Assembly: GCA_016839705.1 (NCBI GenBank) | Contig: JAEOTR010000041.1 | Coordinates: forward strand, 1-64,000 | Direction: 5' to 3' | Source of the DNA: Promethearchaeota archaeon | GTDB taxonomy: Archaea; Asgardarchaeota; Lokiarchaeia; Sigyniarchaeales; SOKP01 | Length of the DNA: 64,000 bases | Shown: piece after piece, positions 5,785 through 55,940 of the stretch | Position numbering within the stretch: the first letter of the stretch is position 1 | How the letters are laid out: the number at the start of each line of letters is the position of its first letter | The notes under the pieces: model-generated | What the model was told of the DNA's origin: nothing | What the model saw: only the letters and a program-made list of their open reading frames with translations | Database searches by the model: none | Translations under genes and position numbers: made by a program

Positions 5785-5888
5785 CGGGCTATAGGGGAAT
5801 TGAACCCCCGACCTTCCTTTTCATGAGAGCTAATCTCATAAATGTCAGGTTAAAAGCCTGCTGCGCTACCTGCCTGCGCCAATAGCCC
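5785..5888 (-). tRNA. tRNA-Lys(UUU) with 30-nt intron (5814-5843) in the variable loop, about position 44/45
   Basis: Acceptor GGGCTAT/ATAGCCC; anticodon arm CAGG-CTTTTAA-CCTG; T arm GGGGG-TTCAATT-CCCCT; removing the hairpin insert gives a 74-nt cloverleaf. Exact junction is less certain because the central helix has one mismatch. Confidence 0.93.
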
Positions 5889-6017
5889 TTACATATATCT
5901 GAGTATAAGTAAAGATTGTACTTACAATAAATCAATTATTATATAAAAATTTTATTGTATGAGGTGTCTCTTCTTTAAATTTTGAATAATTTATTATTAT
6001 CGTAGTTTATTGTAGAC

Positions 6018-7037
6018 CTAATTGCTAAAATGTTTATATCCATTACCTTTTAGTTCGCTTCTTACGTTCTCTTTTAAGATAAATATACTTTCCTCTGAGA
6101 TAACTTTGCCTATTTTAAATAATCTTCCATTTTGTGTTTGGATTGCCTTATTCGCCTTAGAAAATTTATTTGCTGGTATCGTAAAAAGATGAATGTATTC
6201 CTCCCCCGCATTCAATACAAGATCTTCCAATGGAATTTTAAATTCTTGAGAATATAATCTAGCTTCAGATTCAATTAAATTTTCATTAAAGTCGATTTCA
6301 AACCCTAAGTTTGGATTCGATCTCATTAAATCATATAACATTTTTGAAAAACCATCTGAAGAATCTATACTCGAAGTAGCTAGCTGCCTGTCAGATAATA
6401 TTAGTGCTTCAACTCCTGAAATTTTAGGTTCTAAGACGCTCATAATAGATCTTTCATACTTCGGAAAGTCCTCAATCACCCCCCTTCTATTTAAGAGGAT
6501 ATCAAAACCAACGCCAGTTAAACCGAACTTTCCATTAGCGACTACTATATCACCAACTTTAATTCCCCTTCGAAAAATTATGCCTGCTCTTGTTTTTAAT
6601 CCAAATACTGTTGGATTTATGATAAGTTCTTTTGTTTCGTTGATATCTCCCCCAATGTAGTCAATATCAAATTCTAAAGAAGAATCGACCATCCCTTTTA
6701 TTATTCCGATAAATTCCCCTTTCTTTAATTCTTTAGGTAAACCTAAAGATACAATCAATCCCCTTGGTTTGACCCCTTTCACTAGTAAATCACTCAAATT
6801 CATTATAACTGATTTCCGTCCAATCTGATAAAAACTCATTTTGGGTGGTACATCAGTAGTAGAGACAAGCATATCTGAATTCAAAACTAAGAGATTCCCC
6901 ATCCTTTCCTCTTCCAGGTTGAAAAAAAAGGAGTCATCACTCATCAAGTCTTTACCAGTTTTCTTGAAGATGATATCTTCAATAATTTTTATTAAAGCAA
7001 TTTCTCCGAGATCAGCTATCGTAGAATCGTTATTCAT
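6018..7037 (-). CDS. thiL: Thiamine-monophosphate kinase
   Basis: GE..LI, DML, NLSDL, GGD, IDSSDG and GEEY motifs. Confidence 0.92.
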   Translation of the reverse strand: MNNDSTIADLGEIALIKIIEDIIFKKTGKDLMSDDSFFFNLEEERMGNLLVLNSDMLVSTTDVPPKMSFYQIGRKSVIMNLSDLLVKGVKPRGLIVSLGLPKELKKGEFIGIIKGMVDSSLEFDIDYIGGDINETKELIINPTVFGLKTRAGIIFRRGIKVGDIVVANGKFGLTGVGFDILLNRRGVIEDFPKYERSIMSVLEPKISGVEALILSDRQLATSSIDSSDGFSKMLYDLMRSNPNLGFEIDFNENLIESEARLYSQEFKIPLEDLVLNAGEEYIHLFTIPANKFSKANKAIQTQNGRLFKIGKVISEESIFILKENVRSELKGNGYKHFSN

Positions 7038-7258
7038 TAGATTAAATTTACTTAACTTATTTGTGTGTAAAATATAGTAATCACTAATATTTATCCCTAT
7101 TCTGTTTTCAATACGCTATACTTATTTTTTGGTAATATATACTACCTAAAGCACAAATACTAGTATCACGTTTAAAAAGTATTATAACACGTTTTTATGA
7201 AGACAAAAACTTTTGTAGGATCCTTCAATATATTTATTTTAAGTAATAATATTTTTGC

Positions 7259-7359
7259 GCCTCTGTGGCTTAGCGGTAGAGCAACATTTAAATTCACTTT
7301 GACCTAAATGTTAAAGATTCGTAATCTGTGGGCCGGGGGTTCAATTCCCCCCAGAGGCT
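7259..7359 (+). tRNA. tRNA-Thr(CGU) with 29-nt intron (7286-7314) at position 28/29
   Basis: Acceptor GCCTCTG/CAGAGGC; spliced anticodon arm ACAGA-TTCGTAA-TCTGT; BHB-like AGCA/ACA...TGTT/AAA. Confidence 0.94.
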
Positions 7360-7363
7360 TTAA

Positions 7364-8377
7364 TCATACTTCTTCAGTGACAATGTATTTCTTTATGATT
7401 TGTAATGCAAGCATTTTAAAGGCATCATTGATATTCTCACCAGTTTTAGCAGAGGTTTCAATATATGAAAGATTCAGCCTTTTCGCAATCTCTTCGCCTT
7501 CTTCAGTAGATACGACTCGATCTTCAATCAAATCTATTTTATTTCCCACTAAAATCAAAGAAATCATTGGTGAAACACTTTTAATCTCTTTATGCCAATC
7601 ATCTACGCTATCGAAAGTCTCTTTACGAGAAACATCATAAACAAGAATACCCGCTTCCGCATTTGATAAATACGATTGTCTTACACGCTTAAATTGAGCT
7701 TGACCTGCCAAATCCCATATTACAAAACGAACTTTTGAGTCTAATCCCTCAAATCCACATTCTTTCTTCATAATTGAAGTACCAATAGTAGATTTATAAT
7801 CCGTCAGAAAAGAGTTTTCAACAAATCGATGAACCATACTGGTCTTACCTACACCCCCTTCACCACCTAAAATTAATTTATACGCGTATTCTGCCGATTC
7901 AATCTTAATCTTTTGGAGTGTATCTACTTTCCTTTCAATGTTTTGAATGCTTAAATCTTCAATGAGTTTGGGTATTACAGGGCTAACAGTTCTTCCATCA
8001 AATATTCGAGCAATTTTTTCAGCGGCTAAGTATGCATATGGAAAAATAGGATCAACCATTGCAATGGAATCTAAAACAGTAACAAAAATAGCTTCTGGAC
8101 CCGCTTCACAAAAAATAATTCGGTGTTCTTCTGTGTCAAAAGTTCCTGTTCCAAAAGCACCAGAACTAAATTCCTCAGTAATTCTGGTTAGAACAGGTTC
8201 CACTAATGCACTGACACCTCCAATTACATCTTCTTCTATTTCTGTATCAGATTCTCCTTTTAAAGCAGCCATTACCAAACCTTCTCTGTTTACGATAATG
8301 GCTGCCATTAAATTTTTTCCAACTTCCTGCCTATACCACTTAAGCATTGCATCGAGTTTATTTCGATCAACAGACAT
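7364..8377 (-). CDS. Roadblock/LC7 domain fused to a Rab/Ras-like small GTPase
   Basis: N-terminal AAIIVNREGLVMAA roadblock pattern; G-boxes GEGGVGKT, TIG, WDLAGQ, NKID, ETSAK. Confidence 0.9.
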   Translation of the reverse strand: MSVDRNKLDAMLKWYRQEVGKNLMAAIIVNREGLVMAALKGESDTEIEEDVIGGVSALVEPVLTRITEEFSSGAFGTGTFDTEEHRIIFCEAGPEAIFVTVLDSIAMVDPIFPYAYLAAEKIARIFDGRTVSPVIPKLIEDLSIQNIERKVDTLQKIKIESAEYAYKLILGGEGGVGKTSMVHRFVENSFLTDYKSTIGTSIMKKECGFEGLDSKVRFVIWDLAGQAQFKRVRQSYLSNAEAGILVYDVSRKETFDSVDDWHKEIKSVSPMISLILVGNKIDLIEDRVVSTEEGEEIAKRLNLSYIETSAKTGENINDAFKMLALQIIKKYIVTEEV

Positions 8378-8725
8378 GAATTATACAATCTTAATATGAT
8401 GTTTTTAAATAGATCACAAAATGACTAAAATTATTATTTAATATAACACGTCTATCTTAAAAATTTATAGAAAACCAAAATACTATTAAATATTTAGATA
8501 TCATGATTTTCATTTAATTGCAAATGAAATCTTGATAGGTCAAAAAATAACTCGAAAAAAATTAGTTCTTCATATCTTCTCTTCATTGGTTGCCTTACAG
8601 ATAGTTATCTTTTTAAAAACATCGATCAAAGAAAAAAGTGAAGTGAAAAATTGTAAAAATTAATTATATTCTCTTAATTCAATATCTTTAGATAATTAAT
8701 ATCAATATAAAAAATATTAAATTAC

Positions 8726-8840
8726 GCAGGAGTTGCCAAGCCTGGTCTACGGCGCTAGAATATTACGTACGTGTACGATTATGGCGTTACTGAGGCTCTA
8801 GTGACATAGGTCTTCGTGGGTTCGAATCCCACCTCCTGCA
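8726..8840 (+). tRNA. tRNA-Leu(GAG) with 30-nt intron (8759-8788) at position 30/31
   Basis: Acceptor GCAGGAG/CTCCTGC-A; spliced arm CTAGA-CTGAGGC-TCTAG; long variable arm; BHB-like CGCT/AGA...GGCG/TTA. Confidence 0.94.
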
Positions 8841-8942
8841 TACCTAGATCAAATGTTAACATATTGAGTAATATCATACTCAAGATTAATCGGATTTAAT
8901 AATGATCATTAAATACAAAAAATTAATTCATAATAAAATAAT

Positions 8943-10142
8943 GTGATTTCTATTTCGAGTATATTATTAGAAAAAGAATTTGAAACAAAAAAGCATGTAG
9001 AATCATTGGCGTTTAATAGAGCTGCTTCAACTGTAGGAGAAACAAAAGCGATTGATTATATTGAACGAGAATTAAATCTGGAAAATATTGATTCTCATTA
9101 TGAATATTTTCACTGGACTGGGCCTACTAGAATATTAATGAGGATAAGTTATTTAGTAATTATGACCTATCTACTTCTTTCACGTTTGTTTTTACCTATA
9201 ATAGTCTATGCAGTAATAAAAGTTTCTTTTGAAAGAACAAGACAGATGACATTAATAAAAAAAGAATCGTCAAAGAATATTTTTGCCAAAATACCCGCAA
9301 AAGTAGAAGGTACTAAAAGACCCGTGGTTATTTTCTCAGCTCATTATGATTCTATTTCAGCGAATATTTCTTACCGAATTCAAGTTTTAATGTTCTTAAT
9401 ATATAGATTAATTATAGGCTTTTACATATGTGTTATCTTCATACTTTCTATATGGCTTACTCTTGATATATATTCAATATATGGACTCCCTACTGATATA
9501 GTTATACTCATTTCCATTTTATCTTTAATCGGAATAGTAACATCACTCCCAATTCTTTATCTCGTTTTTAATGAAAAACCTTCTTCAAGTTCAATTGATA
9601 ACGCAAGCGGGGTGGCTATATTAATTGAATTAGCAAAATTGTTTAAAAATAACCCACTCGATAAAATCGATTTATACTTTGTGTGGACTGGTGCCGAGGA
9701 ATGGGGTTTAAAAGGTGCAAAAAAATTCTGTTCTGAACATTTTATCCATTTGAATGAGGAGTATGATCTCAATGAGTCTATTAGCATCAATATTGATATG
9801 GTAGGAACATATATTGGACTATTAGATAAAGTTGGGTTACCCTTAAGAAGAAGATTGAATAAAAATTTAAACAATATTTTAGAAGCGACCGCTAACTCAT
9901 TAAACATTCCAATAACTAGATTCAATAAAATAATTGAACCTAAAATGGATCATACAATTTTTAGGAGGTTTGCCAGGAGAGTCAGAAAAAATCTTCAAAT
10001 AGCTTGTTTTCATTCAGATAAAGATTCGAAATATATTCACTCATTAAGAGATACACCTGATAAATGTACGTCTGAAAACCTTAATGGTTGCTTAGCAATT
10101 TGTTACCAAGCCCTTAGATCTATTGATTTAAGGGTTAAATAA
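8943..10142 (+). CDS. Membrane-embedded M28 family metallopeptidase
   Basis: SAHYD, DNASG, GAEE, NIDMVG, DH and YIH Zn-ligand motifs; TM helices. Confidence 0.9.
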   Translation: MISISSILLEKEFETKKHVESLAFNRAASTVGETKAIDYIERELNLENIDSHYEYFHWTGPTRILMRISYLVIMTYLLLSRLFLPIIVYAVIKVSFERTRQMTLIKKESSKNIFAKIPAKVEGTKRPVVIFSAHYDSISANISYRIQVLMFLIYRLIIGFYICVIFILSIWLTLDIYSIYGLPTDIVILISILSLIGIVTSLPILYLVFNEKPSSSSIDNASGVAILIELAKLFKNNPLDKIDLYFVWTGAEEWGLKGAKKFCSEHFIHLNEEYDLNESISINIDMVGTYIGLLDKVGLPLRRRLNKNLNNILEATANSLNIPITRFNKIIEPKMDHTIFRRFARRVRKNLQIACFHSDKDSKYIHSLRDTPDKCTSENLNGCLAICYQALRSIDLRVK

Positions 10143-13100
10143 TTAGAAAAAATCAGCTAACTGATGCTGTTTGATCTTTGGATTGTTAGTTAAGCTCTCA
10201 ACATATTCTTCGATTAGTTCCATTCTTTGAATAGTATATTCATCTAAATTAAACTCCTTACAAAGTTTTAAAGCCCTAGGAATATATTTCGATATTCCTC
10301 CGCGATTAACTGTTAGTATTATTTTATTTCCACATGCAGAACATTTTCCAGCATTTGAAATTGGTGGTCTTCTATATTTTGTATTACATTTTACACATCT
10401 GAATTCCTGCACACTGAATTTTCTTAAATTCCCTAAAATATCTGGATTAAAATGTGTCGAAAGGATTTTTTCTGCTACTTTTCTAGCATCCACTGCCTTT
10501 ATTATTTTAGCCAGATGTAATTGAGCGTCGATTTTATCATCCATGGATTCGTATAGTTTATACGCGGTAATTTTTGGACCTTCATTAATATCATCTGTTG
10601 GAATATTATAGCCAAGATTTTCATATTGTTGTGGAGTCCCTAGTCGATCTTTTACCAATTCAATAACTTTTCCGAGTTCAGAAGGTAATGCATAAGTTTC
10701 AGTAGCTTCAAAAAATTCTAATGGATACTTATATAAAATATCTACATTATGTGCTTGAACATCTACTTCATTTGGATCCAAAATCGACGATATAACTAAA
10801 GTTGCATCCATTCTACCCCCTATCTTATTAGGTAGATAATGTCGAGAGAAATTTAAAAGAGGATCTAATAATAACATAATTCCATCTTCATCACCGTCAC
10901 AGTCTCTTCGCTTCGCAGCATGCCAGAAGGGATGTGCATAAATCGCTCTTGCAGGGCTGAATCCAATAATCCTTCCGACTATGCCAGCACTAGTATGAGG
11001 TGCTAACCCAGCAACTAAATGCCCAATTAGGTCCTCATTTTTAGTAATATTATAAAAGCAATCCATCTTATAAAAACGTTCTAATTCCTCATCAAGAAAA
11101 TTTGCTATTTTGATAAAATATTGAGCACAATCATCTGAAAGGATTACATCTTGCACCCTTAATTCTATAATCTGTTCTAAATCGTTCAAAGGGTCTCCTT
11201 TATAATCGTGAGTATATCCCAATTCTTTTAGTTTTTTAATGCTTATTCCTATTTCCTTAGGTTTAAAATGTGATAACGGTATATCTGTGGCATCATATCT
11301 TATTTCTGCTGTTTTGTAAACTAAAACTTTGTTTTTAGCTCTTAATATCCCCTTCTCTAATGGTTCAGGAACTTTAAACTGATTGGTTAATCCGTAAATT
11401 CCCTTTAATTGTTTAGGTAATGTAATCTGTAAAGAGTCTAAAATTGAATTCACATGCTTCTTTAGATTAAAAATTGCTTCACTAGATGATTTTAACCTCT
11501 CATTACATTGAGGGCATTTACTCCCATCATTTGGATCACTAGGAGGATAGATTTTTTTACATTTCTCACAAATTGATCCCAGTTCAGTATGGGTAGAGCA
11601 ATTAGGACAAATATTAAATATACTTATTGTTCCACAATTTGGGCATTTTTTCCGACATACATCTATTTTTACTCTCTGAAGTTCTAATGCTTTTTCAACT
11701 GATCGAGAACTCCCAACCTTATCACTTAAGGGAAATAAGCTATGAACTCCTTTCATACTTTTCCTCTCCGACTTTTCTGGTCTTCCCATCCTGGACCCAA
11801 TGAAATATGGCGCTTTATTTCTAACTCTTATTGAAGAAATCCTAGTAAAATATGAAAAGACAGTATCTTCACCCGTAGGTCTTACCTTCTTTTTATTATT
11901 TAGACAAAAAATTTCTGAATAAACATAGTTCATGCTTTTGCTAAAATGGATCTTTCCATCGATGATTCTATGAGTGATAAAAGCTTTCTCAAGAATTTCT
12001 TTAATAGAAGGGTCAATTTCTAACACAATTTTGCATTCAGAATCTAAAAATCCTGAGATAAAAGCATCTCTTATTTTACAGAGTTCCTCAATTGTAATAT
12101 TACCCCAAAAATCAGTAAAAACCGGGTGTAGTGGGATATTGAAATCCTTAGATATCTTTATTGCTTCTTTAGCCGTGGGCTTGAGGTAAAAGGGATTTTC
12201 TATTAATTCATTTAACCTAGAATTACTGCTAATTTGATCATTAACCGCTTTTTTTAGTTCTAGTGCCCACCACTCTTCTACATATCCGGAGGGAAGTAAC
12301 TTGTGATTGTTCTCAGCAAAATCCCCAAATCCAAAGAGAATATCTCCTATGAACAATATTTCTTCTAAATCCCTGAACACTTTTTTAGCCATTTTATATG
12401 TTGGAATCCTGATTACATCCCCGTTTATTAATTTTACTATAGGTGGTTCTATACCGCTTACGGGGCAAATACTTGCACTCTTTCCTGGTCTTTCAATTCT
12501 AAGTTGTGTACCAATTGCTACAAAATCGTCTAAAATACCCATTGCAGCAGGGTGCATACCTCCTGCAGCTAAGCCTGTGTTTCGAGATCGTCCATATCTT
12601 ATTCGATGACCTCCAATTGCAGAAGGATGACTAAAAACAGCTCGACCCGCAATTATGTCAGCAACATATTTAAAATTGGGGATAATTTGTTCTTGGGGTG
12701 TTTTTCCACTCCTACTAATTTGTGAATCGGTTTTTTCAGATTGTTCCTTCTGGGCTATTTTTTTTAAATCAGCTAACCAATCCCAGCCTTCCAGGTTCAT
12801 AGATTTAGCAATTTTTAATAATTTTGGAGCTTTTAATAAGAATCCATCGTTCAAAACAAGACATGCTCCTCCTCTTATATGATTTGTCTCTATTCTGGGC
12901 AAATCTCTAAATGCTGAAACTTCTTCTTCTTCGGTTGAATCACCATTTATTTCAATAGGTAAATTTTTAACAGCATATCTTATCTCACGATTCGAGGACG
13001 GATATTGTAGATGAACATTTCTGTCATACAACTTGACCTCTTCTACATATCTACCGATTTCAGCTTCCGTAGCCTCATATTTAGGGATATTTGATTTTTT

Positions 13101-13598
13101 CCTCACATAATCAGCAATTAATACGCATAAAGCTGCTGTAGTGCCTCCTGCTGCTCTAATTGGACCGGCGAAATATAATGAGATATACTTTTTTCCCATA
13201 TGATCTTTTCGGATTAATATCTTGGAAATTCCTTCAAGTGGAGCACTAACTATACCCGATGTCTTTATCGCTAATCCTGCTCTTATAGCTCTTTCTACTC
13301 TTTCTTCTAAGGTTTTAATATTGCCAATTTTTTTGTCTAAAATATCTGTCACGATTTTAAATACGATCTCATCAGCGTTTAATCCGTTGTTTTTTAACTC
13401 TCTTATTTTTTCTGCAATTCCTTCAGGCCCGACTAGCTTTTCTACTCTTCCAGCTAGATCCTTTGCTTGAGGACATTCTACATAAATTTCAGGATCAAGA
13501 CCTTTGCTCCTTGCTTCTTCAGCTATGCGGTAACATTGATCTACTTGACCTTGAATAGTAGCGAAATACTCTTCCATCTCTTTCGTTGTCTTTACCAT
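10143..13598 (-). CDS. polC: DNA polymerase D large subunit DP2
   Basis: YFAGPIRAAGGT, RRDCDGDED catalytic motif, Zn fingers, C-terminal PIP box QHQLADFF; no intein. Confidence 0.98.
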   Translation of the reverse strand: MVKTTKEMEEYFATIQGQVDQCYRIAEEARSKGLDPEIYVECPQAKDLAGRVEKLVGPEGIAEKIRELKNNGLNADEIVFKIVTDILDKKIGNIKTLEERVERAIRAGLAIKTSGIVSAPLEGISKILIRKDHMGKKYISLYFAGPIRAAGGTTAALCVLIADYVRKKSNIPKYEATEAEIGRYVEEVKLYDRNVHLQYPSSNREIRYAVKNLPIEINGDSTEEEEVSAFRDLPRIETNHIRGGACLVLNDGFLLKAPKLLKIAKSMNLEGWDWLADLKKIAQKEQSEKTDSQISRSGKTPQEQIIPNFKYVADIIAGRAVFSHPSAIGGHRIRYGRSRNTGLAAGGMHPAAMGILDDFVAIGTQLRIERPGKSASICPVSGIEPPIVKLINGDVIRIPTYKMAKKVFRDLEEILFIGDILFGFGDFAENNHKLLPSGYVEEWWALELKKAVNDQISSNSRLNELIENPFYLKPTAKEAIKISKDFNIPLHPVFTDFWGNITIEELCKIRDAFISGFLDSECKIVLEIDPSIKEILEKAFITHRIIDGKIHFSKSMNYVYSEIFCLNNKKKVRPTGEDTVFSYFTRISSIRVRNKAPYFIGSRMGRPEKSERKSMKGVHSLFPLSDKVGSSRSVEKALELQRVKIDVCRKKCPNCGTISIFNICPNCSTHTELGSICEKCKKIYPPSDPNDGSKCPQCNERLKSSSEAIFNLKKHVNSILDSLQITLPKQLKGIYGLTNQFKVPEPLEKGILRAKNKVLVYKTAEIRYDATDIPLSHFKPKEIGISIKKLKELGYTHDYKGDPLNDLEQIIELRVQDVILSDDCAQYFIKIANFLDEELERFYKMDCFYNITKNEDLIGHLVAGLAPHTSAGIVGRIIGFSPARAIYAHPFWHAAKRRDCDGDEDGIMLLLDPLLNFSRHYLPNKIGGRMDATLVISSILDPNEVDVQAHNVDILYKYPLEFFEATETYALPSELGKVIELVKDRLGTPQQYENLGYNIPTDDINEGPKITAYKLYESMDDKIDAQLHLAKIIKAVDARKVAEKILSTHFNPDILGNLRKFSVQEFRCVKCNTKYRRPPISNAGKCSACGNKIILTVNRGGISKYIPRALKLCKEFNLDEYTIQRMELIEEYVESLTNNPKIKQHQLADFF

Positions 13599-13830
13599 GT
13601 TAAATCATAATAGAAATTATTTTTGGGAGTATAGAGAAAATTTTACTTCTGTTATTATAGGTATTTCATACCATAAATTAAATTCAATTATTAATCTACT
13701 ATTTCATTAATAAATCTGGAGAGAATGCTAATTTATTACTCTCTTGTGATATAAAAGGAATACATGTTTTTCCTTTAATAAAAAATAATTTAATTCTGTT
13801 AACCATAATAGAAATAAATCAATTTTTTAA

Positions 13831-19828: not shown

Positions 19829-21301
19829 TTATCCTTTAACAACACCTACTGGTACTAACCTGACGATTTTTTCAACTATTCCAAGGTCATGGCTAACTTG
19901 AACAACTTGATCAATATCTTTATATGCACCGGGACTTTCTTCTGCGAGGACCTTCATAGAAGCACTCTTTACCAGAATCCCTTTTTTTCCGAGATCTTCT
20001 TTTACTTTTGTACCCCAATATCGTTTAACAGCTTTTGATCTCGACATTACACGACCAGATCCATGAGCTGTCGATCCAAAAGATAAATCCATCGCTTTTG
20101 GCTTACCTACACATAAATATGAAGCTGATCCCATAGTTCCGGGAATTAAAGCAGGTTGACCAATATCTTTATAATCTTGAGGTAACGCGGGGTGATTAGG
20201 AGGAAATGCTCTAGTCGCACCTTTACGATGGACATTTAATTTCATCTTTTTGCCATCCACATCGTGTTCTTCAATCTTTAGAATATTATGGCAAACACCA
20301 TAAATCATATGCATGTCTAATGCATCAATATCTTTATTAAATGCATTTTGAAAAGATTCTCTTAACCAGTGAGTAATCAACTGACGATTAGTAAACCCAA
20401 AATTAGCAGCACATGCCATTTGTTTTAGGTAATTTTGTGCTTCGGGTGTATCTGCTGGTACACAAGCTAGTTCTCTATCTGGTACTCTAATTTTATATTG
20501 CTTCATTGCCTGTTCGATATTACGTAAACTATCCGTGCATACTTGATGACCTAATGCTCTACTTCCGGTATGAACCATTATAGTAATTTGATTTTTCTCA
20601 TGTATTCCTAGTTTTTTGGCAATTTCTTTATTATAAATATTATCTACTCTTTGTATCTCTAGAAAATGATTTCCACTCCCTAAAGAACCAAGTTGCTTGA
20701 TAGCTCTTTGTTTTGCCTTTTGTGATACTAAAGAGGCATCTGCATTCTTTAGACAGCCGTTCTCTTCTAAATGCTCAGCATCTTCATCAATAGCATACCC
20801 ATTATCTAAAGCCCAATTCAACCCATTATTTAGAACTTTATCTAACTCAGAATAGCTTATGTTTAATTTACCCTTTGAACCTAACCCAGAAGGGATATTT
20901 CTAAAAATATTCTCTAATAAATCAGGCAGTAAGTTTCTAATATCGTTGAGAAATAAATTTGTTCTTAATAGTCGCACACCACAATTTATATCGTACCCAA
21001 CTCCTCCAGGGGATATCATTCCCGTTTCAGCTTCAGTTCCCGCTACTCCACCAATACAAAAACCGTATCCCTGATGGGCATCAGATAATGCTATAGCATG
21101 TTTTTGGATCCCTGGTAAACATGCAACATTGCATATTTGATCCAATGTACGGTCTCCCTTAATTTTCTCTAAGATATAACTATTAGCATAAATTTTAACC
21201 GGGACTCTCATCTGGAATTTCTCTATTTTGCCTTGAATCCGAGTCATCAATGTTTTCGGAGGAATCTCGTAAATATTTTCCTCAACTTTATTAACATTCA
21301 T
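19829..21301 (-). CDS. rtcB: tRNA-splicing ligase RtcB
   Basis: DAHQGYG, GYDINCG, GSGNHF, HTGSR, HRKGAT and HGSGR motifs intact. Confidence 0.98.
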   Translation of the reverse strand: MNVNKVEENIYEIPPKTLMTRIQGKIEKFQMRVPVKIYANSYILEKIKGDRTLDQICNVACLPGIQKHAIALSDAHQGYGFCIGGVAGTEAETGMISPGGVGYDINCGVRLLRTNLFLNDIRNLLPDLLENIFRNIPSGLGSKGKLNISYSELDKVLNNGLNWALDNGYAIDEDAEHLEENGCLKNADASLVSQKAKQRAIKQLGSLGSGNHFLEIQRVDNIYNKEIAKKLGIHEKNQITIMVHTGSRALGHQVCTDSLRNIEQAMKQYKIRVPDRELACVPADTPEAQNYLKQMACAANFGFTNRQLITHWLRESFQNAFNKDIDALDMHMIYGVCHNILKIEEHDVDGKKMKLNVHRKGATRAFPPNHPALPQDYKDIGQPALIPGTMGSASYLCVGKPKAMDLSFGSTAHGSGRVMSRSKAVKRYWGTKVKEDLGKKGILVKSASMKVLAEESPGAYKDIDQVVQVSHDLGIVEKIVRLVPVGVVKG

Positions 21302-44111: not shown

Positions 44112-44123
44112 TTAATAATTTAG

Positions 44124-46263: not shown

Positions 46264-46281
46264 AATTATACTCATTTTATT

Positions 46282-47490
46282 TCAAATAATAATATCAACG
46301 ATGTTTTGTTGTAGTATTTGTGGCATTAGTCCGAATGCCTCTATCCCATCAACCGAAATGGCATTTGGGAATGCTTTTTTCATTATATTATATGCTCCAT
46401 TCACGTCAGCATTGAGTAGAACACCTTTGGAGGTTTTGAACAGACCTCTGGAAATTCTTTTTCCTACATAGGTTTCATGTTTTCCAATCGGTTCATTATC
46501 CAAGAAAGAGCATTTAGAAGTATGATTTTCATTAACAGTTAAAACATGAATTCCTTTTAATTGAGCTTTATATTCGATTTGTTTTACTAATTTCAAGAAA
46601 GGGATTTGCACAAATTTCTGATTATTTTTTTTTCCAATATTAATCTTCTGCTTCCATCCATGATTATAACCTATTATAATTGTTCCAATGTTATGTAAAG
46701 TGCAATATTCAATTATACTCTTAGAGATTCGATGAAATAATGTAGTAAGTTTATTGTTTCGAGTTAAATGGAGTTTTTGAATCCGTTTTGTATCATTAAA
46801 ATTGCCTTTCTTACTTTCAATACTCCTATAATATGCTAATTGCTTGTTATAATATTGATTTATAGATTTTATCATCCCACCCTTAATAATAAATGGTTTA
46901 CATCCATTATTATTTACAGCAGTTATGAGATTATTTAATCCTAAATCAATGCTTAGCAAATGATCTTTATCTAATCTTAAATCATTCTCTTTTTTTTCAT
47001 AAACAAGCTCAACTTTATATTTTACTCCTAAAGGGATTATCCTTACTTCTTTTAATCTTTCTGTAATTCTTGTTTTAATTGGGTTAATATTTACTCTTTT
47101 TGGAAAGTGTATATATCCTTGTTTTATCGTGCATTGCTGATTGGTGAAAATTACTACAGATTCCCCCTTTTTCTTTTTATATCCTGGAATTTTAGGTCTT
47201 CTTTTAAATTTCCTAAAATCAAGCCTATACTCCTTGAGACCTTTAAAATATGATTTCCAATTTCTGTTCACGTATTTGAGGATTTGCTGTGATGTCTGAG
47301 AAGGAAGACTTTGGTAAGCTTGTTTGTTTTTAAGAATGAAATCTAAGTCATAATAAGTTAAAAGATTATTGAGATTAAAAAAATCTTGTCTAACATACCA
47401 ATTAGCTAAATTGTAAAGGTTTTTAGCTAAATGACATATTGTTGATAATTCTAATGAATATTCTACTTGGATAACTTCAGTTAATCTCAT
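46282..47490 (-). mobile_element. tnpB: Solo TnpB (IS200/IS605/IS607 superfamily, IS1341-like, no tnpA)
   Basis: KNLYN, SIDLGLNNL, ENHTSKCS and NADVNGAYNI; sits between convergent housekeeping blocks. Confidence 0.93.
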
Positions 47491-47642
47491 TTTAATACTA
47501 GTGAAAAACCATTGCTATTTAATGAAATATAGTATCCATAATAACTGATTTTTCCAATAATAATATCAAATGAATACAAAAGATATAACTTATGGAAAAT
47601 ATATTTACTATAAAATAAATTAAAAAATTTGAAAATAAATTG

Positions 47643-48059
47643 TTAGTCTTCAAGATCCATTTTAAATTGCTCGTAAATTTTTCTAACTCTGTCTGCCGAA
47701 GGCCCTTCTCCACGTACGCCTGATTCATCGACTATAATTTTCCCACTCAATATTGAGATTATGTTTTGATCTTCAATATAATTCACATGTCCTTTCGAGA
47801 AAATAGTGGCTATCCGTTCGCTAAGCGCAACCATAGGAAAGGGTTCTTCTTCTAAACTCACAAAATTATAAAAATTACTCCTTATAAACAATTTTGGGAA
47901 TGTTTTATTTTTTTCATTTTTCACATTAATAAGGATAAGGTTTGAATCTTCTGAGATTCCTTTTAATTGGCCAACAAAAAATTTATCCTTATCAATGTAT
48001 ACTTTAACGATTTTATCAATAAGCGTTGCTAACTCAGTATTATATTGTCTAAATGACAT
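47643..48059 (-). CDS. Sm-like protein with C-terminal domain (SmAP3 type)
   Basis: Sm1 motif GQLKGI...NLIL plus C-terminal V.ESGV.G.GP.A.RV..IY. Confidence 0.88.
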   Translation of the reverse strand: MSFRQYNTELATLIDKIVKVYIDKDKFFVGQLKGISEDSNLILINVKNEKNKTFPKLFIRSNFYNFVSLEEEPFPMVALSERIATIFSKGHVNYIEDQNIISILSGKIIVDESGVRGEGPSADRVRKIYEQFKMDLED

Positions 48060-48122
48060 AATTCATACAACAGAACATTTTTACTTATTATAATATTATT
48101 TTCTTTCGTTTTTATTCTTAAT

Positions 48123-48785
48123 TTAAATAAATAACTCATTTATTAGTTTCTCAATATTTTCTTCAGTTAAAGCACTTGTTGTAATAATCTTAAGGTTTGG
48201 ATTGATTTTTTCTGCATCTTTTATCATTTCTTCTATGTTTACATCCATTACATCTCTTAAATCTATTTTATTAATTACTGCTATATCCGAAGACTTGAAC
48301 AACATTGGATGTTTGCGTATAACCCATGGACCTTCTGTTATAGAAACTATAACTACTCTCTTATCAGCACCTAGTATAAAATCTGATGGGCAGATTAAAT
48401 TCCCAACATTCTCAATAAAAAGAATATCAATCTGCTGTAAATCATGATTTTTTATTACCTGCGAAATATGATACGAATTTAACGAACACTCTCTACCGGT
48501 GTTAATTTGAATTGAGGTAACTCCATGTTTACTAATTCTATCGGCATCAATTCTTGTAGTTACATCACCATTAATAACAAGAATTCGATATTCCTTGGAG
48601 ACCCTCCTTATTATCGCTTCGATTAGTGCTGTTTTTCCTGCACCAATTGCTCCTACGAAATCAATAGATTTTATTTTAAGTTCGTTTAAAACCTTCCTAT
48701 TTTTTTCAGCTAATCTATCATTATTAGCAAGTAAATCCTCATTTAACTCAATTACTTTGGAGATCTCCTTGTCAGACATTATCAA
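48123..48785 (-). CDS. hypB: Hydrogenase nickel-incorporation GTPase HypB
   Basis: GAIGAGKT, INTG.EC, ENVGNLICP, KHP and NKID. Confidence 0.93.
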   Translation of the reverse strand: MIMSDKEISKVIELNEDLLANNDRLAEKNRKVLNELKIKSIDFVGAIGAGKTALIEAIIRRVSKEYRILVINGDVTTRIDADRISKHGVTSIQINTGRECSLNSYHISQVIKNHDLQQIDILFIENVGNLICPSDFILGADKRVVIVSITEGPWVIRKHPMLFKSSDIAVINKIDLRDVMDVNIEEMIKDAEKINPNLKIITTSALTEENIEKLINELFI

Positions 48786-48880
48786 ATTTTTATATATGAG
48801 TTGAAATCAAATAAATTACGAAAATAAAATCATTGTCATTGATATTTTTTATGGATATAAAAGAAAAGTTACAAAATCTT

Positions 48881-49834
48881 TTATCTCCCTAATTGGATTC
48901 TATATACAATGTATGCTCCCAAAATCCCACCTAGATCCGGTAAATAAAACAAAATATATATAGGATCACTAAGCGCAAGTAATAACCCCGGCAATAATCT
49001 GAACAGGATTATTATATATAAAAATGTTCTTCCTTTCAATCTAATTGGAAGAAAATACATCATTGCAGTAATCTGTTGATTCATAATAGGAAAAAGTGAA
49101 TAAGACAATATTCCTAATATTCCACCCCACGCAAATCCAACAAATATTGAATTCTCAATCCTATCTATTGGTATATAAAAATGCAAAGATAATCTCATTA
49201 TAATATAAAACAACGCAGAAAATAAGCTACTTATGATATACAACTTAAATAAAAATTTAGGGCCTTTTCTTGCTTCAATATTTCTTGCCATAAAATAAAG
49301 AAACATTAACATTATAATCAATAAGAAAAATCCAAAAAAATCAATTTCACTTATAAAAAGACTTGTAATAAATGTATGGTAAGTAAAATCAAAGATTAGA
49401 CCGTATAAACTCAAATAAATATATTGAGGAAGCCCATAAAGACCAAAAATTATCCCAACAATTGAAAAAACGATAATCATTACAAATAATGTCTTTGTGC
49501 CTGAAAATTGAGTAGACTTTTTATAAAGTTGTTGGCTACTCTCATAAGTCTTTAAGGTTTTCTTTCTTTCTCGATCCTGTCTTTTTAGATATTTTTTTAA
49601 TGCCTTTGGGCCTTGATCTAAATATTCTTGAGATTTAGGTTTTTGTAAATCTACATCTGGATAGCGTTTCTTTGTGCTTTTTGGAGTGGTGGGTGCAACT
49701 GATACATGCTTTAATTCAAATGTACATTCATGATTTTCAGGCAATCTATGTTTCTTACAAAAAGTTCCACCACAATATTTACAAGTAAAAGGTAGATATC
49801 CAATCTGTTCACCACAAAACTCACAATACGTCAA
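48881..49834 (-). CDS. AN1 zinc finger plus rhomboid-like membrane domain (catalytic dyad absent)
   Basis: C..C....[22 protein letters not shown]; about 6 TMs; IE...G...F..LY rhomboid pattern. Confidence 0.8.
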
Positions 49835-50013
49835 TATGAATCACAGTAGAATTTTTCAATCGTTTACCTTTTGGTTTGATAAAAAAGTACCCATAATATA
49901 ATTTTAAAAAATTATTATCCTTGATAATTTTTTAGGTTTTTTTTGTTATTTTAAATTATTATTTGAATTTCTAAGTCTTCAAAAAGAAATTCAGATTGTA
50001 AATCAACTGAAGA

Positions 50014-50979
50014 TTAAAGTGTTATACCACCTTGAGTTAGAACTAAAGTTACAATCAACATTCCCACCAGAGATACGGCTAAGAATATGTAGACTTTTTT
50101 GTTCCACTTCCAAATATTTTGACCATCCAAAATCCCAATGGGGATCATATTAAACGAACCTAACATGAAATTTAAATAAGCAGAAACTACAAATAGGGGA
50201 CCTAATGGGTTAAGGCTTGAAGGGATTAAAAAAGCTATAATAAATAGAATAATCCCATAAACAAGGTTTACAGATGGTCCCGCTGCTTTACATAAACCTG
50301 TTTTTTTACTCACCTTTTCTAGCCCTAAAACTACAACTGCACCTGGTAAAGCTAAAGAAGGTATTGGTATATTTAATAGTCCAGCAACTAGTGAAATAAC
50401 AGTCAATAGCATACCGAATGTAAGAAGTCGAAATTTTGTCTGCAATTTAAAACGTAAAGCTACTTGTCGATGACCGAATTCATGGAAAAGAAAAGCTGTC
50501 ATGTAGATACCTGCTAGCATAAATGTTGTCCAACCATAACCTATGGCAAATAGAACTGGATCATAAAAGATCATAACTCCTATAACGAAAATCAAAACTG
50601 AGGCTATTACAAAATGTATTAACTCTGATAAATGTGGAAATAAGATTCCCTTAAACTTTATCCCGGAATCGGGTTCAAAAGCATTTGCAGGAACGTGAGT
50701 TTCTTGACGAAACCATGTATAAGTCCCGTCTGTTGTCCCACGAGCTACACCCGGAGGTGATTGTTGATACTCCTGTACATGGTGAGTGGGTGAAATTTGA
50801 GTAGATTCAGTATAAGAACTCGTAGGAGGTTGCACTTGTGGAATATTCAGAGCCTCCCTGACAATATTACATTCATGATCTATTGGATCTTTATGAAAAG
50901 AACAATAATCTTGACTACAATTGCTACAAAAAAAAGGTTCTCCCATAATTTCATTTCCACAGTGAGCACATCTTACCAT
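50014..50979 (-). CDS. AN1 zinc finger plus M50 (site-2) intramembrane metalloprotease
   Basis: AN1 Cys/His pattern; HEFGH, AAGP and FNMIPIGILDG. Confidence 0.9.
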   Translation of the reverse strand: MVRCAHCGNEIMGEPFFCSNCSQDYCSFHKDPIDHECNIVREALNIPQVQPPTSSYTESTQISPTHHVQEYQQSPPGVARGTTDGTYTWFRQETHVPANAFEPDSGIKFKGILFPHLSELIHFVIASVLIFVIGVMIFYDPVLFAIGYGWTTFMLAGIYMTAFLFHEFGHRQVALRFKLQTKFRLLTFGMLLTVISLVAGLLNIPIPSLALPGAVVVLGLEKVSKKTGLCKAAGPSVNLVYGIILFIIAFLIPSSLNPLGPLFVVSAYLNFMLGSFNMIPIGILDGQNIWKWNKKVYIFLAVSLVGMLIVTLVLTQGGITL

Positions 50980-51172
50980 TATTATAACCTAATATTATGA
51001 AATTTTTTTTGTGTTATTTTTTAATTAATTTATTATTAAATTCCAAATTTAAAACTTTATTTAGATAGTTAGAGACACTTTTCTTCTGTGCTTATTAACC
51101 TTGTTTTTGCTAAATTTTATTAATGTAAAGTTTACTATTTTAGTAGAGTTAAAGGATTTATAAGTGAGTGTG

Positions 51173-51325
51173 ATGAGTGAGGAAGAAGAACAAGATGAAA
51201 AATCTCTAGAAGAGGAACGACAAAAACTAGCTGAATTAGGTGTGGATAACACTTGGGGATTACTGACATCTGGTGAAAAAAAGAAAGAAGAACCGGAAAA
51301 GAAACCTTTTAGAGGTTTCAAATAA
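51173..51325 (+). CDS. 50-aa charged microprotein (absent from ORF track)
   Basis: MSEEEEQDEKSLEEERQKLAELGVDNTWGLLTSGEKKKEEPEKKPFRGFK; purine-rich coding bias; GTGAG upstream. Confidence 0.7.
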   Translation: MSEEEEQDEKSLEEERQKLAELGVDNTWGLLTSGEKKKEEPEKKPFRGFK

Positions 51326-51416
51326 AAATATAAAACTTTCCTATTTTTACAGAAACAGAATGTAATTATATTTCTAATTACTTAGTATAATTATTATAAC
51401 TTATATAGAAGTCGGG

Positions 51417-51671
51417 TTGATACATACGAAAAAATCAAAAAGAACAGTGTATTGCCCAACCTGTGAGTGTGAAGTTGTATTACGCAGAAAGAATTTTGAA
51501 CACCAATATCATGAGTTACTTTGCTTTCTTGTAATCCTTACAATGGGTATTGGATTTATTATTTATTATCTGTTAAAACATAGCAAAAAACCTAATACAT
51601 GTCCTAATTGTGAAACTGAATTTGACTTGGAAACCCATAAAGAGATTATTATTAAAGAAAGAGATTTTTAA
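51417..51671 (+). CDS. LITAF-like zinc-ribbon membrane protein
   Basis: CPTC - hydrophobic helix - CPNC architecture. Confidence 0.7.
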   Translation: MIHTKKSKRTVYCPTCECEVVLRRKNFEHQYHELLCFLVILTMGIGFIIYYLLKHSKKPNTCPNCETEFDLETHKEIIIKERDF

Positions 51672-51714
51672 ATTCACTACATGACGAAATTGGTAATAAT
51701 TAGACAAAAGAACT

Positions 51715-51975
51715 CTATTTTATTTTCATTTCCTTTTTGCATCTTGGACAAATTTTATCATCTTCAGATAACTGCTTTTTCATAATTATCTTTTGATATT
51801 TGCATTTCGAATTAGGACATGTAAGAGTATATTTTGATAACTTAATATTTGATTTTTCAGGGACTTTAGCGTTATTAGTTTTACTCTCGATTTTTTTCTT
51901 TAGACTTGGAATTGGTGTCTTTCCTTTTGGCTTTAATTCTTCATCCTCTGGTTTAAGCCACTTGTCTAATCCCAC
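51715..51975 (-). CDS. Small zinc-ribbon protein
   Basis: CPNSKC...CPRC; N-terminal GLDKWL. Confidence 0.75.
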   Translation of the reverse strand: MGLDKWLKPEDEELKPKGKTPIPSLKKKIESKTNNAKVPEKSNIKLSKYTLTCPNSKCKYQKIIMKKQLSEDDKICPRCKKEMKIK

Positions 51976-52085
51976 TTGATACTCACTTTAAAAATGCTCT
52001 CTATCAGTAATAAGGAAAAATAGAGCTTTAATATATTTTATAAAAAAGAGAAAAAAATAAAAATTTGTTTATCAAAATTTTCGAA

Positions 52086-53330
52086 TTAGAAGACTTGTAC
52101 CTTTCCTGCTATTAAACGTCTTCTTAAGTCAAGAAAACTATCCTTGCTCATTTTTTCCTCAAAAACTTCATTCGCAATCTTTCTTACCGACTCAAAATTA
52201 ACATTTTCCGCTTCGATTAATTCTATACTCGCGATCCAAGGATCCGTAATAGGCCTTCCTATCTGAGAGAGCAATTTTACATGAGCTTCTGCTATGTCAC
52301 CTTGACCTAGTTGAAAAATTTCTCTTGCGATTTCCGTACTCAATACATTATAAAGTTTTCCCACATGATTAACTGGGTTTTTTCCACAAACCGCTTCTAA
52401 ACTCATAGTTCGGCAAGGAGTAATAAGGCCATTAGACCTATTGCCACGTCCTACTTCTCCATCATCTCCTGCTTCTGCTGAAGTGCCCGTAATTGTAAGA
52501 TACATGATTCCTTTCTCAATATTATCTGCGACATTAACCTGACAAGTAACATCGCGTTCTGGAATGATATCTGAAGCTAAATCTAAAACAGCGTCTTTAA
52601 TTTGATTTGTGTAACTCATATATTCACTTGCGTCTTCTATATATTTACTTACCATTGCTGCTGCTACGGTTATCCCAACTTCATCTCCAATTCTCTCCAC
52701 CATTATTTTAATATCCTCACCAGAACCTTTGCACTTCTTTTTGAATTTATTTGAATTAATCATCCTTTCAGCTTCTAAAGCAATTTTTTCAACATCAGAA
52801 TATGGGGCATAGCCCACTCCGAAACTAGTATCATTAGCAAGTGGAATATCCTCAGTATGATGTGATTCATCAAAAACTCCGGTTAAATCTATCGACCCGG
52901 GTCTAACCGCATAATCAAACTGAATATCTCGGTTTAAATCAAGGTTTCTAAATATTTCAGATAGTACTTTACGTTGTGTTTCAATACAGATAGTTGCGAC
53001 AGGAATATAATCGAGTTTATTAGACCCATCAGAACATTCTGTAAGAATTTGGTGTATTGCCCTTCCAACAATCAAGAAATATTGTGGTTGGATGATTAAG
53101 CCTCCACCAAATTCTGGTTTTGCAGTTCCTCCAACAAGAGCCGCTTTATCAACATTATGGTGGTACACACGATCGTAATTTTCAAGATAATAAGCACACA
53201 AGGCTCTTGAGCAGGCATCAGCAACTGCATCGCAAACCGTATCAGGATGTCCAATACCTTTCCTTTCAACAAGCTCCGGAAATTCGCTTTTTTCTATTGG
53301 TAAAAAACCGGCTTTCGTTACCTTTAACAC
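52086..53330 (-). CDS. mat: Archaeal S-adenosylmethionine synthetase
   Basis: [26 protein letters not shown] and [13 protein letters not shown]. Confidence 0.97.
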
Positions 53331-53544
53331 AAAATATCAACTTTTACTTAGTTCGTTTTTTAAAATTATTTATTAAAAAGGTCCTTATTGTAAATATTTT
53401 ATCTTTATTAAATGAAAAATGCTGTTATTGCATTTTATATAACTGCTAAATATTGCATGATTTATATATTTTGTAACTATAATATGCATAATTGATATAT
53501 TTTTTATAATTATAAAACTAAGAAAGATTTTTGAGTCAAATAGA

Positions 53545-54117
53545 ATGCAGAAATTTCCATCTTTAAGCGAAATAAAACCTTTAAGGAAAAAATTAAATAT
53601 AAGCCAAAAAGAACTTGCTTTTGAAATGAAATTAACTCAGTCCACTATCTCAAGAATTGAAAGTGGTACAGTTGATCCTCCATATTCTAAAGTTAAAAAC
53701 ATATTTGAATATTTAGAGAGTGAACGCATAGCTCGTAAGAAATCAAAAAAGCAAGCTAAAGATATAATGACTCGTACAATCATTTCTATCAAGCCTAATT
53801 CATCAATAAGAGATGCTGTAGAATTAATGAATCAACATGGATATTCTCAACTCCCCTTATTAGAGCAAAATGATAATTTTGGAAGCATTACATCGAAAAA
53901 AATTCAGAAATATATAACTGACAACCCTGAGATTCTTGGCGCTGATGTGTCCCTTATAAAAGAATTACCATTTCCTGAAGTTGATGAGAATTGGAATGTA
54001 AAGGATATTTCAGATTTACTTGTGAAATATTCCGCTGTATTGGTAAAAAATGAAACACATAATATTGTTGGAATAATTACAGATGCTGATTTTCTCAAAC
54101 TTTCTGGTAACTTTTAA
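53545..54117 (+). CDS. HTH-XRE plus CBS pair transcriptional regulator
   Basis: SQKELA..QSTISRIESG..DP; YSQLP; GIIT.AD. Confidence 0.93.
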   Translation: MQKFPSLSEIKPLRKKLNISQKELAFEMKLTQSTISRIESGTVDPPYSKVKNIFEYLESERIARKKSKKQAKDIMTRTIISIKPNSSIRDAVELMNQHGYSQLPLLEQNDNFGSITSKKIQKYITDNPEILGADVSLIKELPFPEVDENWNVKDISDLLVKYSAVLVKNETHNIVGIITDADFLKLSGNF

Positions 54118-54232
54118 TACATCACATGAAACCGTGCGAAAGATACGAAAATAGAATTGATTTAAAAATATAATACAACATTAACAACATAAAAAAAATT
54201 TATTTATAACTTACCATTTAAGTAAACGGGAA

Positions 54233-55237
54233 TTGATGACTAGCACTGTAATTGAAAAAGTTAACAACTTGTTAAAAAAGGCTAATTTTGAAACCTTTGT
54301 TTTAGGAAATTTTGCCACAAAGACGAGTAAATTTTGTTTTGATTTATTAGGAAAAAAGGATGATGTAGTGTTTAGTGTTAAAGTTTTTTCTAACATAGAT
54401 AACATAAATCCCGAAGTAATTCAAGATATCAAATCACTTTCTCTGATATTAAAGTCTAAACCATTATTGATAGGATTGAAGAACCGATATCAAAAATTAG
54501 AAGATAATACAATATACGTAAGAGATGGATTACCTTTCATAACCGTTAACACGTTCGAGAATATTCTAAATAACAATATCTTTCCATATGTTTTAGCTCG
54601 GAGAGGTGGCGGCGTAATATTTCTGAATGGATTTTTGATGAAAAAAATAAGAGAAGAACATTCAATAACAAGAAAAGAGTTATCAGAACAATTAGGAGTA
54701 GCTAAGAGAACTATTAGTGCCTATGAAAATGAAAGTATGCGTCCATCGGAGGAAATGGCAGAAAAAATTCTAAGCATCTTAGAAAATAATGAAATTTTCA
54801 AAAAAATAAACATTTTCAAATGGAAAATTAAATACGACATGGATGCCCAAGAAATTTCTGAAGAAAAAGAGTTAAGTGAATTTGAATCGCATATAAAAAC
54901 AATTATTGATGATATAGGATTATCGTCTTATTGGTATAAAAAAGCTACAGTTCCGTTCAAATTATCATTATTTTCCTCACTTAATCAAACAAAGAATGAT
55001 GGTTTTTATCCTCTCTTTTCTAACATCTCTGAAGATCAGAATAATGTTAATGAGATGAATTTTAACAGTTTGAAAATGTTCAATGATTTATTTCATAAAA
55101 CAGCGTTATATATTATCGATAATAATGTAAGAATACCCGGAGCTACTAAAAGAAAAGATATCCATGTTGTAAAAATAAAAAATCTGGAAGAAGTTAATGA
55201 TGAAGAAGAATTCATCGATCTCATTCAAGATTCATAA
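54233..55237 (+). CDS. Archaeal HTH transcriptional regulator (COG1395-like)
   Basis: CFDL, KV..NID, ARRGG and HTH ELSEQLGVAKRTISAYE. Confidence 0.88.
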   Translation: MMTSTVIEKVNNLLKKANFETFVLGNFATKTSKFCFDLLGKKDDVVFSVKVFSNIDNINPEVIQDIKSLSLILKSKPLLIGLKNRYQKLEDNTIYVRDGLPFITVNTFENILNNNIFPYVLARRGGGVIFLNGFLMKKIREEHSITRKELSEQLGVAKRTISAYENESMRPSEEMAEKILSILENNEIFKKINIFKWKIKYDMDAQEISEEKELSEFESHIKTIIDDIGLSSYWYKKATVPFKLSLFSSLNQTKNDGFYPLFSNISEDQNNVNEMNFNSLKMFNDLFHKTALYIIDNNVRIPGATKRKDIHVVKIKNLEEVNDEEEFIDLIQDS

Positions 55238-55250
55238 GGAGAAATAAAAT

Positions 55251-55940
55251 TTGATCTGCGGTATTGACGAGGCTGGTAGAATATAATCTATCTCGGATTA
55301 TATACCAAAAGGCCCCGTAATTGGTCCTCTTGTGTTATGTGGAGTTTGCTATAAAGAATCCAATTTATCCTATTTAGAGCGGATTGGCGTAAAAGACTCT
55401 AAAAAATTAACTGCCAAAAGGAGGAGAATTTTAGCTAAATTAATAAAGGAATCGTGCCATTCATTTAAAATAATTGTCGTTCCTCCCCGAGAAATTGATG
55501 AAAGGGAAGAAAAAAGAATTACTCTGAATAAACTCGAGGAATTAAAAATGGCTGAAATTATTAGAGAATTAAAACCTGATACTATCTATATTGACGCAGT
55601 TGATGTAAATGAAGAAAGATTTACCCAATCAATCCTAGACCTCTTAAATTATAGCCCAAAAGAAATTATTTCAAAACATAAAGCTGATGACCTATTCCCT
55701 ATTGTATCTGCGGCTTCAATTATAGCAAAAGATAAAAGAGATGCATTAATTGAGGAATTAAAGGAAAAATATGGAGATTTCGGCTCTGGATATCCCTCAG
55801 ATTTAAGAACCACAGATTTTCTTCGGGAATATATAAAGAAAAAACAAAAAATACCCCCCTACGCGAGAAAAACATGGGATACAATAAAGAAAATAGTGGA
55901 TGAAGAATTAGGAAACAAAAAAATAACCGATTTTTTCTAA
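55251..55940 (+). CDS. rnhB: Ribonuclease HII, interrupted by a 30-nt intron (exon 1 55251-55279, exon 2 55310-55940; 219 aa spliced)
   Basis: AGGAGA then TTG start; spliced MICGIDEAGRGPVIGPLV; DSKKL, HKAD, SAASIIAK, GSGYPSD; PIP-like NKKITDFF. Confidence 0.93.
55280..55309 (+). other. BHB-type mRNA intron in rnhB
   Basis: TGGT-AG|A-ATATAATC-TATCTCG-GATTATAT-ACCA-AA|A: perfect 4-bp helix, two 3-nt bulges, 8-bp inner stem, in-frame TAA. Confidence 0.88.

Follow-up and report, generated by a model that had tools for sequence, protein, structure and literature searches.

Splicing of a protein-coding transcript by the tRNA-splicing machinery has an archaeal precedent in cbf5, whose pre-mRNA contains a bulge-helix-bulge (BHB) intron that was reportedly described by Watanabe in 2002 and by Yoshinari in 2006. 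Transposed tRNA introns of Thermoproteales are likewise said to have been described, by Sugahara in 2008 and by Fujishima in 2010. Here we analyze a stretch of 64,000 nucleotides (nt) of DNA from an Asgard archaeon (the window), which carries four inserts of 29 or 30 nt: three in the genes for tRNA-Lys(UUU), tRNA-Thr(CGU) and tRNA-Leu(GAG), and one in rnhB, the gene for RNase HII. We consider it highly probable that these inserts are genuine archaeal BHB introns, of the relaxed "HBh" kind, and that their likeness comes mainly from a shared minimal architecture.

The cbf5 gene encodes a pseudouridine synthase, and its BHB intron occurs in Desulfurococcales and Sulfolobales (Yokobori 2009, PMC2738675). 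The rnhB intron resembles it in being a tRNA-type intron inside a coding sequence, in having been gained or lost among relatives, and in that a heteromeric EndA is presumed to cut it. However, it differs in the gene and in the lineage (Asgard archaea, i.e., Promethearchaeota), in splitting a catalytic motif ten codons into the gene, and in being one of several coding-sequence introns in a single genome, where introns in the genes for EF-2 and mevalonate kinase were also confirmed. Our literature search found no paper on an rnhB intron or on BHB introns in Asgard coding sequences; the sole precedent found was cbf5 in Crenarchaeota.

Asgard tRNA genes are known to be heavily interrupted, with repeated gains of introns and non-canonical BHB sites (bioRxiv 10.64898/2026.10.13.758758), and Asgard archaea possess an (alpha-beta)2 EndA with an L1 loop, a form of the enzyme able to cut relaxed motifs (PMC5829648). 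Both the heavy interruption of tRNA genes and the enzyme type are already published. The introns that we describe share with these published cases their many non-canonical positions, repeated gain, BHB motifs, a putative (alpha-beta)2 EndA with the L1 or crenarchaeal-specific loop (CSL), and the lack of a copying signal. However, those reports (PMC5829648, bioRxiv 10.64898/2026.10.13.758758) cover tRNA genes only, and the text of the preprint does not treat mRNA. The lengths also differ: the modal length at non-canonical sites is about 30 nt here, versus an overall median of 22-23 nt in the preprint (bioRxiv 10.64898/2026.10.13.758758). The introns of Thermoproteales are similarly numerous and short, occupy many tRNA positions and go together with a broad-specificity EndA, but their families show high identity between sites, and nothing comparable was found within this genome.

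The window comprises bases 1-64000 of contig 25 in a 3.36-Mb assembly that is 93% complete and has a GC content of about 30%. The labels on the nearest RNase HII proteins and on 80 related species genomes read Lokiarchaeota, Promethearchaeota or Promethearchaeia, all of which denote Asgard archaea. Family-level comparisons used 60 genomes of the same family, from which 55 rnhB orthologues were read; a wider rnhB sample consisted of 80 named species genomes, all Promethearchaeota; and same-genus comparisons used 10 genomes. The three tRNAs of the window were detected with the Rfam model RF00005, and their introns were then placed in BHB register. On the window, ARAGORN reported zero tRNAs in its default mode and mis-parsed them when introns were permitted. 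We also tried to place junctions by splicing out every possible segment and asking for an ARAGORN cloverleaf; this procedure was too permissive and was dropped, and intron-less orthologues were used instead.

The intron in rnhB

The reading frame of rnhB encodes ICGIDEAGR, then ten codons that include a TAA stop, and then GPVIGPLV. Deleting positions 55280-55309 rebuilds GIDEAGR joined directly to GPVIG. This gene is the single rnhB match in the whole genome, and its unspliced message would, judging by the frame, be unable to give the full protein.

Comparison with relatives provides the main evidence that this insert is an intron. A homologous insert of 28-31 nt lies in the same codon in 32 of the 55 family orthologues, in 29 of them with a length of exactly 30 nt, and the other 23 lack it precisely. 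Among the 80 Promethearchaeota species, the insert is found in 57 genomes and absent in 21, with two that could not be read. All 32 insert-bearing family orthologues have an in-frame stop within the insert, and three are also frameshifted; lengths of 28, 29 and 31 nt occur. In each of the 32, the DEAG(R) upstream of the insert is conserved, and exon 1 is intact and in register. Exon 2 is 56-89% identical across relatives.

The insert also evolves as a BHB structure would. In the alignment of the rnhB motif, 89% of cells are paired, compared with 72.5% in shuffled alignments (none of 500 shuffles was as high) and 26-45% when the pairing partners were slid. Both sides change in 10 of the 16 pairs. 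Moreover, wobble bases of exon codons for Ala and Gly covary with the intron: pair 9-43 occurs as U-A, A-U and C-G, and pair 12-40 as U-G and G-C. Covariation of this kind between wobble positions and the intron in the central helix is intelligible only if the structure is in use.

On its well-supported branches, the gene tree, which is a quick tree, forces at least five changes between presence and absence of the rnhB insert, including changes between sister genomes within genera. In the same tree, the RNase HII of this genome stands apart from the other same-genus sequences, on weak branches, and its intron looks more like the introns of other genera, with the start AATAT rather than AATTT. 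The genes that follow rnhB immediately, on the other strand (55943-57849, minus strand), are fibrillarin-like and Nop5-like; they were named from sequence, and their products would belong to the box C/D ribonucleoprotein.

Three tRNA introns and their relatives

For the tRNA introns, the junctions could be fixed by comparison with uninterrupted genes. The spliced tRNA-Lys(UUU) is identical to an intron-less same-genus orthologue at 74 of 74 positions, and its junction is fixed both by orthologues and by the intron-less paralogue tRNA-Lys(CUU). The spliced tRNA-Leu(GAG) matches orthologues at 85 of 85 positions. For tRNA-Thr(CGU), the 20-mer across the junction occurs uninterrupted in one intron-less orthologue, and the site can be placed equally well at 29/30 on account of a repeated A. 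Excision at the bulges would thus be expected to restore the mature sequence in the three tRNAs and in rnhB. The pairing of the introns is also conserved: the central helix of tRNA-Leu(GAG) has four of four pairs in all nine distinct orthologues, with one double compensatory change, and the inner stem of the Lys intron shows several pair types among orthologues. The proposal of the earlier note that these are genuine tRNA-type introns, with one of them in an mRNA, is therefore borne out by the intron-less orthologues and, for rnhB, by covariation and by the pattern of presence and absence.

The earlier note had regarded intron positions that are fixed across the lineage as a sign against its account. 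Aligning the three tRNAs to intron-less references in the 60 relatives reveals 14 distinct intron sites; intron positions in the lineage are not fixed, and their turnover is fast. For example, eight of the 10 same-genus genomes have the Lys intron at 44/45, as do individual genomes from no fewer than three further genera. The two same-genus genomes without it have their tRNA-Thr(CGU) intron at 37/38, not at 28/29. A second tRNA-Leu(GAG) intron of about 28-34 nt, located in the variable arm and T-stem or in the T-loop, exists in many same-genus relatives and is absent in this genome. Most same-genus genomes have the Lys(UUU)-Thr(CGU)-Leu(GAG) cluster on a single contig, with its order and spacing conserved. 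In another genus, tRNA-Lys(UUU) has a 25-nt insert in its variable loop between 5-nt direct repeats, AGGTC, which resemble a target-site duplication or may simply leave the position of splicing ambiguous.

The wider genome contains further introns. Inserts interrupt 12 of its 24 Rfam-detected tRNAs, with lengths of 26-30 nt at non-canonical and 19-22 nt at canonical positions. The additional cases include a 30-nt insert in tRNA-Pro(GGG), a two-intron tRNA on contig 76 and a 108-nt tRNA on contig 36. The Rfam tRNA model finds only these 24 tRNAs in the 93%-complete genome, and probably many tRNA genes are too interrupted for detection, as the 2026 Asgard tRNA preprint argues. Two more coding-sequence introns are listed with the features of the window in Table 1. 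Of 30 orthologues of the mevalonate kinase gene, 15 carry the insert, and the Gly codon that pairs with the intron is GGC in all of these alleles; alleles without the intron use GGA, GGC or GGT.

Table 1. Positions of the introns, their host genes and the RtcB gene. Coordinates refer to the window unless another contig is named.
Feature	Position	Strand	Description
tRNA-Lys(UUU) gene	5785..5888	-	104 nt; Rfam 50.6 bits
tRNA-Lys(UUU) intron	5814..5843	-	30 nt, at 44/45; 5' bulge ACA; 9-bp inner stem; central helix with 3 of 4 pairs
tRNA-Thr(CGU) gene	7259..7359	+	101 nt; Rfam 48.3 bits
tRNA-Thr(CGU) intron	7286..7314	+	29 nt, in 5' strand of anticodon stem, at 28/29; central helix with all 4 pairs, including one G-U
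tRNA-Leu(GAG) gene	8726..8840	+	115 nt; Rfam 37.6 bits, E 0.00026
tRNA-Leu(GAG) intron	8759..8788	+	30 nt, at 30/31 (equally 31/32); central helix with 4 of 4 pairs
RtcB RNA ligase gene	19832..21139	-	PF01139, 564 bits, profile positions 1-426; expected to join the exons
rnhB exon 1	55251..55279	+	TTG start 13 nt past the upstream stop; M-I-C-G-I-D-E-A-G-R (R partial), with catalytic Asp and Glu
rnhB mRNA BHB intron	55280..55309	+	30 nt with in-frame TAA; 1 nt, 8-bp stem with 7-nt loop (1 + 8 + 7 + 8), then 4 (ACCA, pairing with exon TGGT) + 2
rnhB exon 2	55310..55940	+	209 aa plus final base of Arg codon; PF01351 E 1.9e-41, profile positions 9-198
EF-2 BHB intron	contig 82: 11187-11216		30 nt with in-frame TAA, just before EEQARGITI; layout 1+9+5+9+4+2, as in rnhB orthologues
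Mevalonate kinase BHB intron	contig 29: 8703-8733		31 nt, frameshifting; starts ATTTA; between ILFGE and HFVVYG

Shared anatomy and predicted splicing

The four inserts have a common layout, which consists of one nucleotide, an AT-rich stem of 8-9 bp (interrupted in the Thr and Leu introns) around a loop of 5-7 nt, then four nucleotides and finally two. The four nucleotides near the 3' end of each intron pair with four exon bases that end two positions before the cut. All four pairs of this central helix form in rnhB, Thr and Leu, where the bulges have 3 nt, and three of the four form in Lys; the outer helices are weak in all four. In the order Lys, Thr, Leu and rnhB, the 5' bulges are ACA, ACA, AGA and AGA, and the introns start with ATTTA, ATTTA, AATAT and AATAT. 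The sequence TAGAATAT is common to Leu and rnhB, and spans the 5' junction. The earlier note had reported these lengths, bulges of the form A(C/G)A, starts, internal stems, weak outer helices and the shared TAGAATAT, and we confirmed all of them. The fold of the rnhB intron has a minimum free energy of -14.8 kcal/mol, which is better than shuffled sequences (z -2.3), as is that of the Lys intron (z -2.7).

Under the mechanism that we propose, the intron would supply nearly the whole motif: one bulge nucleotide, the 8-9 bp hairpin as the inner helix, the 3' strand of the central helix and two bulge nucleotides. Upstream, the host gene would add just two nucleotides to the bulge and four that are complementary, and an enzyme with the loop would need no outer helix. 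Because the intron would bring the inner helix and one strand of the central helix with it, only four exon bases would have to match. A self-contained cassette of about 30 nt could therefore be tolerated anywhere, including in coding sequence. A two-subunit EndA, composed of a catalytic alpha and a His-less beta subunit, would cut in both bulges, and RtcB would then join the exons; cleavage and ligation of all four introns are predicted here from sequence features. In rnhB, splicing would rebuild the catalytic GIDEAGRGP, so that active RNase HII would be produced only from spliced mRNA.

Genes for the EndA alpha subunit and for RtcB are present. The genome has one EndA gene, on contig 56 (35901-36491), encoding 197 aa, whose closest matches are catalytic subunits of crenarchaeal heterotetramers (3P1Z_B, E 1e-34). 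Its alignment to the alpha subunit of A. pernix is gapless through the crenarchaeal-specific loop, in which the lysine is conserved (NKPR versus EKPR). Each of the 10 same-genus genomes contains a second EndA paralogue; the copy from one of these genomes has 32% identity and is devoid of both the loop region and the catalytic His, which fits a structural beta subunit. The earlier note had expected a broad-specificity endonuclease, and the loop lysine of the alpha subunit together with the second paralogue supports the presence of this putative enzyme type in the lineage, in agreement with PMC5829648.

Several observations weigh against the view that the four inserts are BHB introns, and are best considered together. 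When the whole genome was searched under strict BHB rules for introns of 18-60 nt, the background was flat, at 30-4000 hits per length, and 29-30 nt did not stand out. Neither the bulge rule A(C/G)-cut-A nor a filter for inserts whose removal merges open reading frames brought out a peak, and coding-sequence introns could not be discovered de novo from their shape; in the window, this filter yielded no credible coding-sequence intron beyond rnhB. In this AT-rich genome, the BHB shape by itself is not above chance. The motifs of Thr and Leu fold no better than shuffled sequences (z -0.05 and +0.6), and the central helix of the Lys intron is poor in its own genus, with two of four pairs in most relatives. 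The beta paralogue of EndA was not found in the genome's own 93%-complete assembly. Finally, the closest database proteins to RNase HII are only N-terminally truncated calls that start inside the insert (MPKGPV), and none has the spliced N-terminus. Because the shape is no better than chance, the reality of the introns rests on the comparative evidence given above.

Kinship, origin and meaning of the introns

Given that the inserts are introns, their resemblance to each other might have arisen in more than one way. One explanation, to which we give about an even chance, is pure convergence: the introns would have independent origins, with the endonuclease, the ligase and the AT-rich genome favoring a minimal hairpin of about 30 nt with A/U pairs beside the bulges. 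In its favor, the same layout recurs at unrelated sites (the tRNAs, rnhB, EF-2 and mevalonate kinase), while the introns of each orthologous set hold their length (30, 29 or 30 nt) as stems and loops diverge with compensatory changes. The third base of the bulge also varies among orthologues, in which it can be A, T, C or G. We compared profiles for 10 pairs of sites against column permutations that preserve the hairpin, and eight of the 10 pairs were unremarkable. However, convergence alone leaves the source of the inserts unexplained. In addition, introns at other sites of the family do not always start with ATTTA or AATAT, and the likeness among the Thr, rnhB and mevalonate kinase introns falls in loop and apical-stem positions whose structural roles differ.

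This likeness speaks for a second explanation, namely that the mini-introns are one mobile family that spread by reverse splicing or transposition through tRNA genes and into mRNAs, so that the four share descent. In the profile comparisons, Thr(CGU) and rnhB score 4.29 versus 1.8 +/- 0.65 in permutations (p 0.003-0.005), which is marginal after 10 tests, and their best pair, taken between genomes, is about 80% identical; for Thr and mevalonate kinase, p is 0.016-0.03. The octamers at the 5' junctions of this genome also cluster beyond what independent columns would give: four pairs agree at seven or more of eight positions, compared with 0.73 expected (P 0.004), and the occurrence of at least one pair identical at all eight has P 0.05. 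It is important to consider that one of the clustered pairs consists of two paralogous tRNA-Ser genes. These signals are hints of kinship and not proof. A mobile family would also accord with the fast turnover of sites in the three tRNAs and with the constant modal length at non-canonical sites.

Nevertheless, we think that such a family is unlikely. None of nine introns examined has a second copy in the genome, where the best secondary matches are exact stretches of 12-15 nt with E-values expected by chance. Identity between sites among the four introns is 33-50%, and an identity of at least 70-80%, the mark of transposed families of the Thermoproteales type, is not reached among them. Intron pairs from the same genome (0.435) are no more alike than pairs from different genomes (0.426). 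The earlier note had read the similar junctions of Leu and rnhB as kinship, but this similarity is within chance (p about 0.2, identity 0.47), and Lys and rnhB give p of about 0.4-0.6. Published data point the same way, in that 1.5% of Asgard tRNA introns are in cross-isotype families (0.6% in shuffles), as opposed to 28.3% in Thermoproteales (6.8% in shuffles), with no copying signal (bioRxiv 10.64898/2026.10.13.758758). Moreover, all four introns are old and have been inherited vertically, and therefore no recent landing is visible. The earlier note's claim of a tRNA-type intron within a protein gene is supported; the spread by reverse splicing or transposition that the note had envisaged is not supported in the form in which it was put. 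The results do not establish transposition between sites.

It is very improbable that the rnhB insert stays unspliced, whether in a pseudogene, as an N-terminally truncated protein or by ribosome bypass of the 30-nt hairpin: although genes in public annotation are called from within the insert or from beyond it, the truncated product of this sole rnhB would be without two catalytic residues of the DEDD site, Asp and Glu, exon 1 remains intact and exon 2 similar among relatives, the exon-intron covariation maintains the BHB and thus more than a hairpin, the inserts are not all 30 nt long, and the same cassette is present in tRNA genes, whose products are not themselves translated.

We therefore return to genuine BHB introns with a shared minimal architecture. 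This lineage has very many mini-introns that are rapidly gained and lost, and any sequence kinship between the four would be ancient at most, and is unproven. We also find it doubtful, though worth stating, that a cassette of about 30 nt is mobile between tRNA and protein genes in Promethearchaeota, with the Thr(CGU), rnhB and mevalonate kinase introns being diverged copies of one ancestor. If true, tRNA-type splicing would have brought introns into mRNAs of the archaea most closely related to eukaryotes.

In the searchable literature, splicing of a coding sequence by the tRNA machinery is documented for one archaeal gene, cbf5. Our results suggest that an essential-looking enzyme of DNA repair and replication in an Asgard archaeon depends on tRNA-type splicing, as probably do at least two more genes. 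One practical consequence is a systematic annotation error, since public rnhB records are N-terminally truncated proteins without the catalytic Asp and Glu. A further consequence concerns the exons themselves, whose wobble positions are constrained by pairing with the intron. The coding-sequence introns are built exactly as the tRNA introns of the same genome, and the origin and spread of BHB introns become testable in the archaeal group nearest to eukaryotes.

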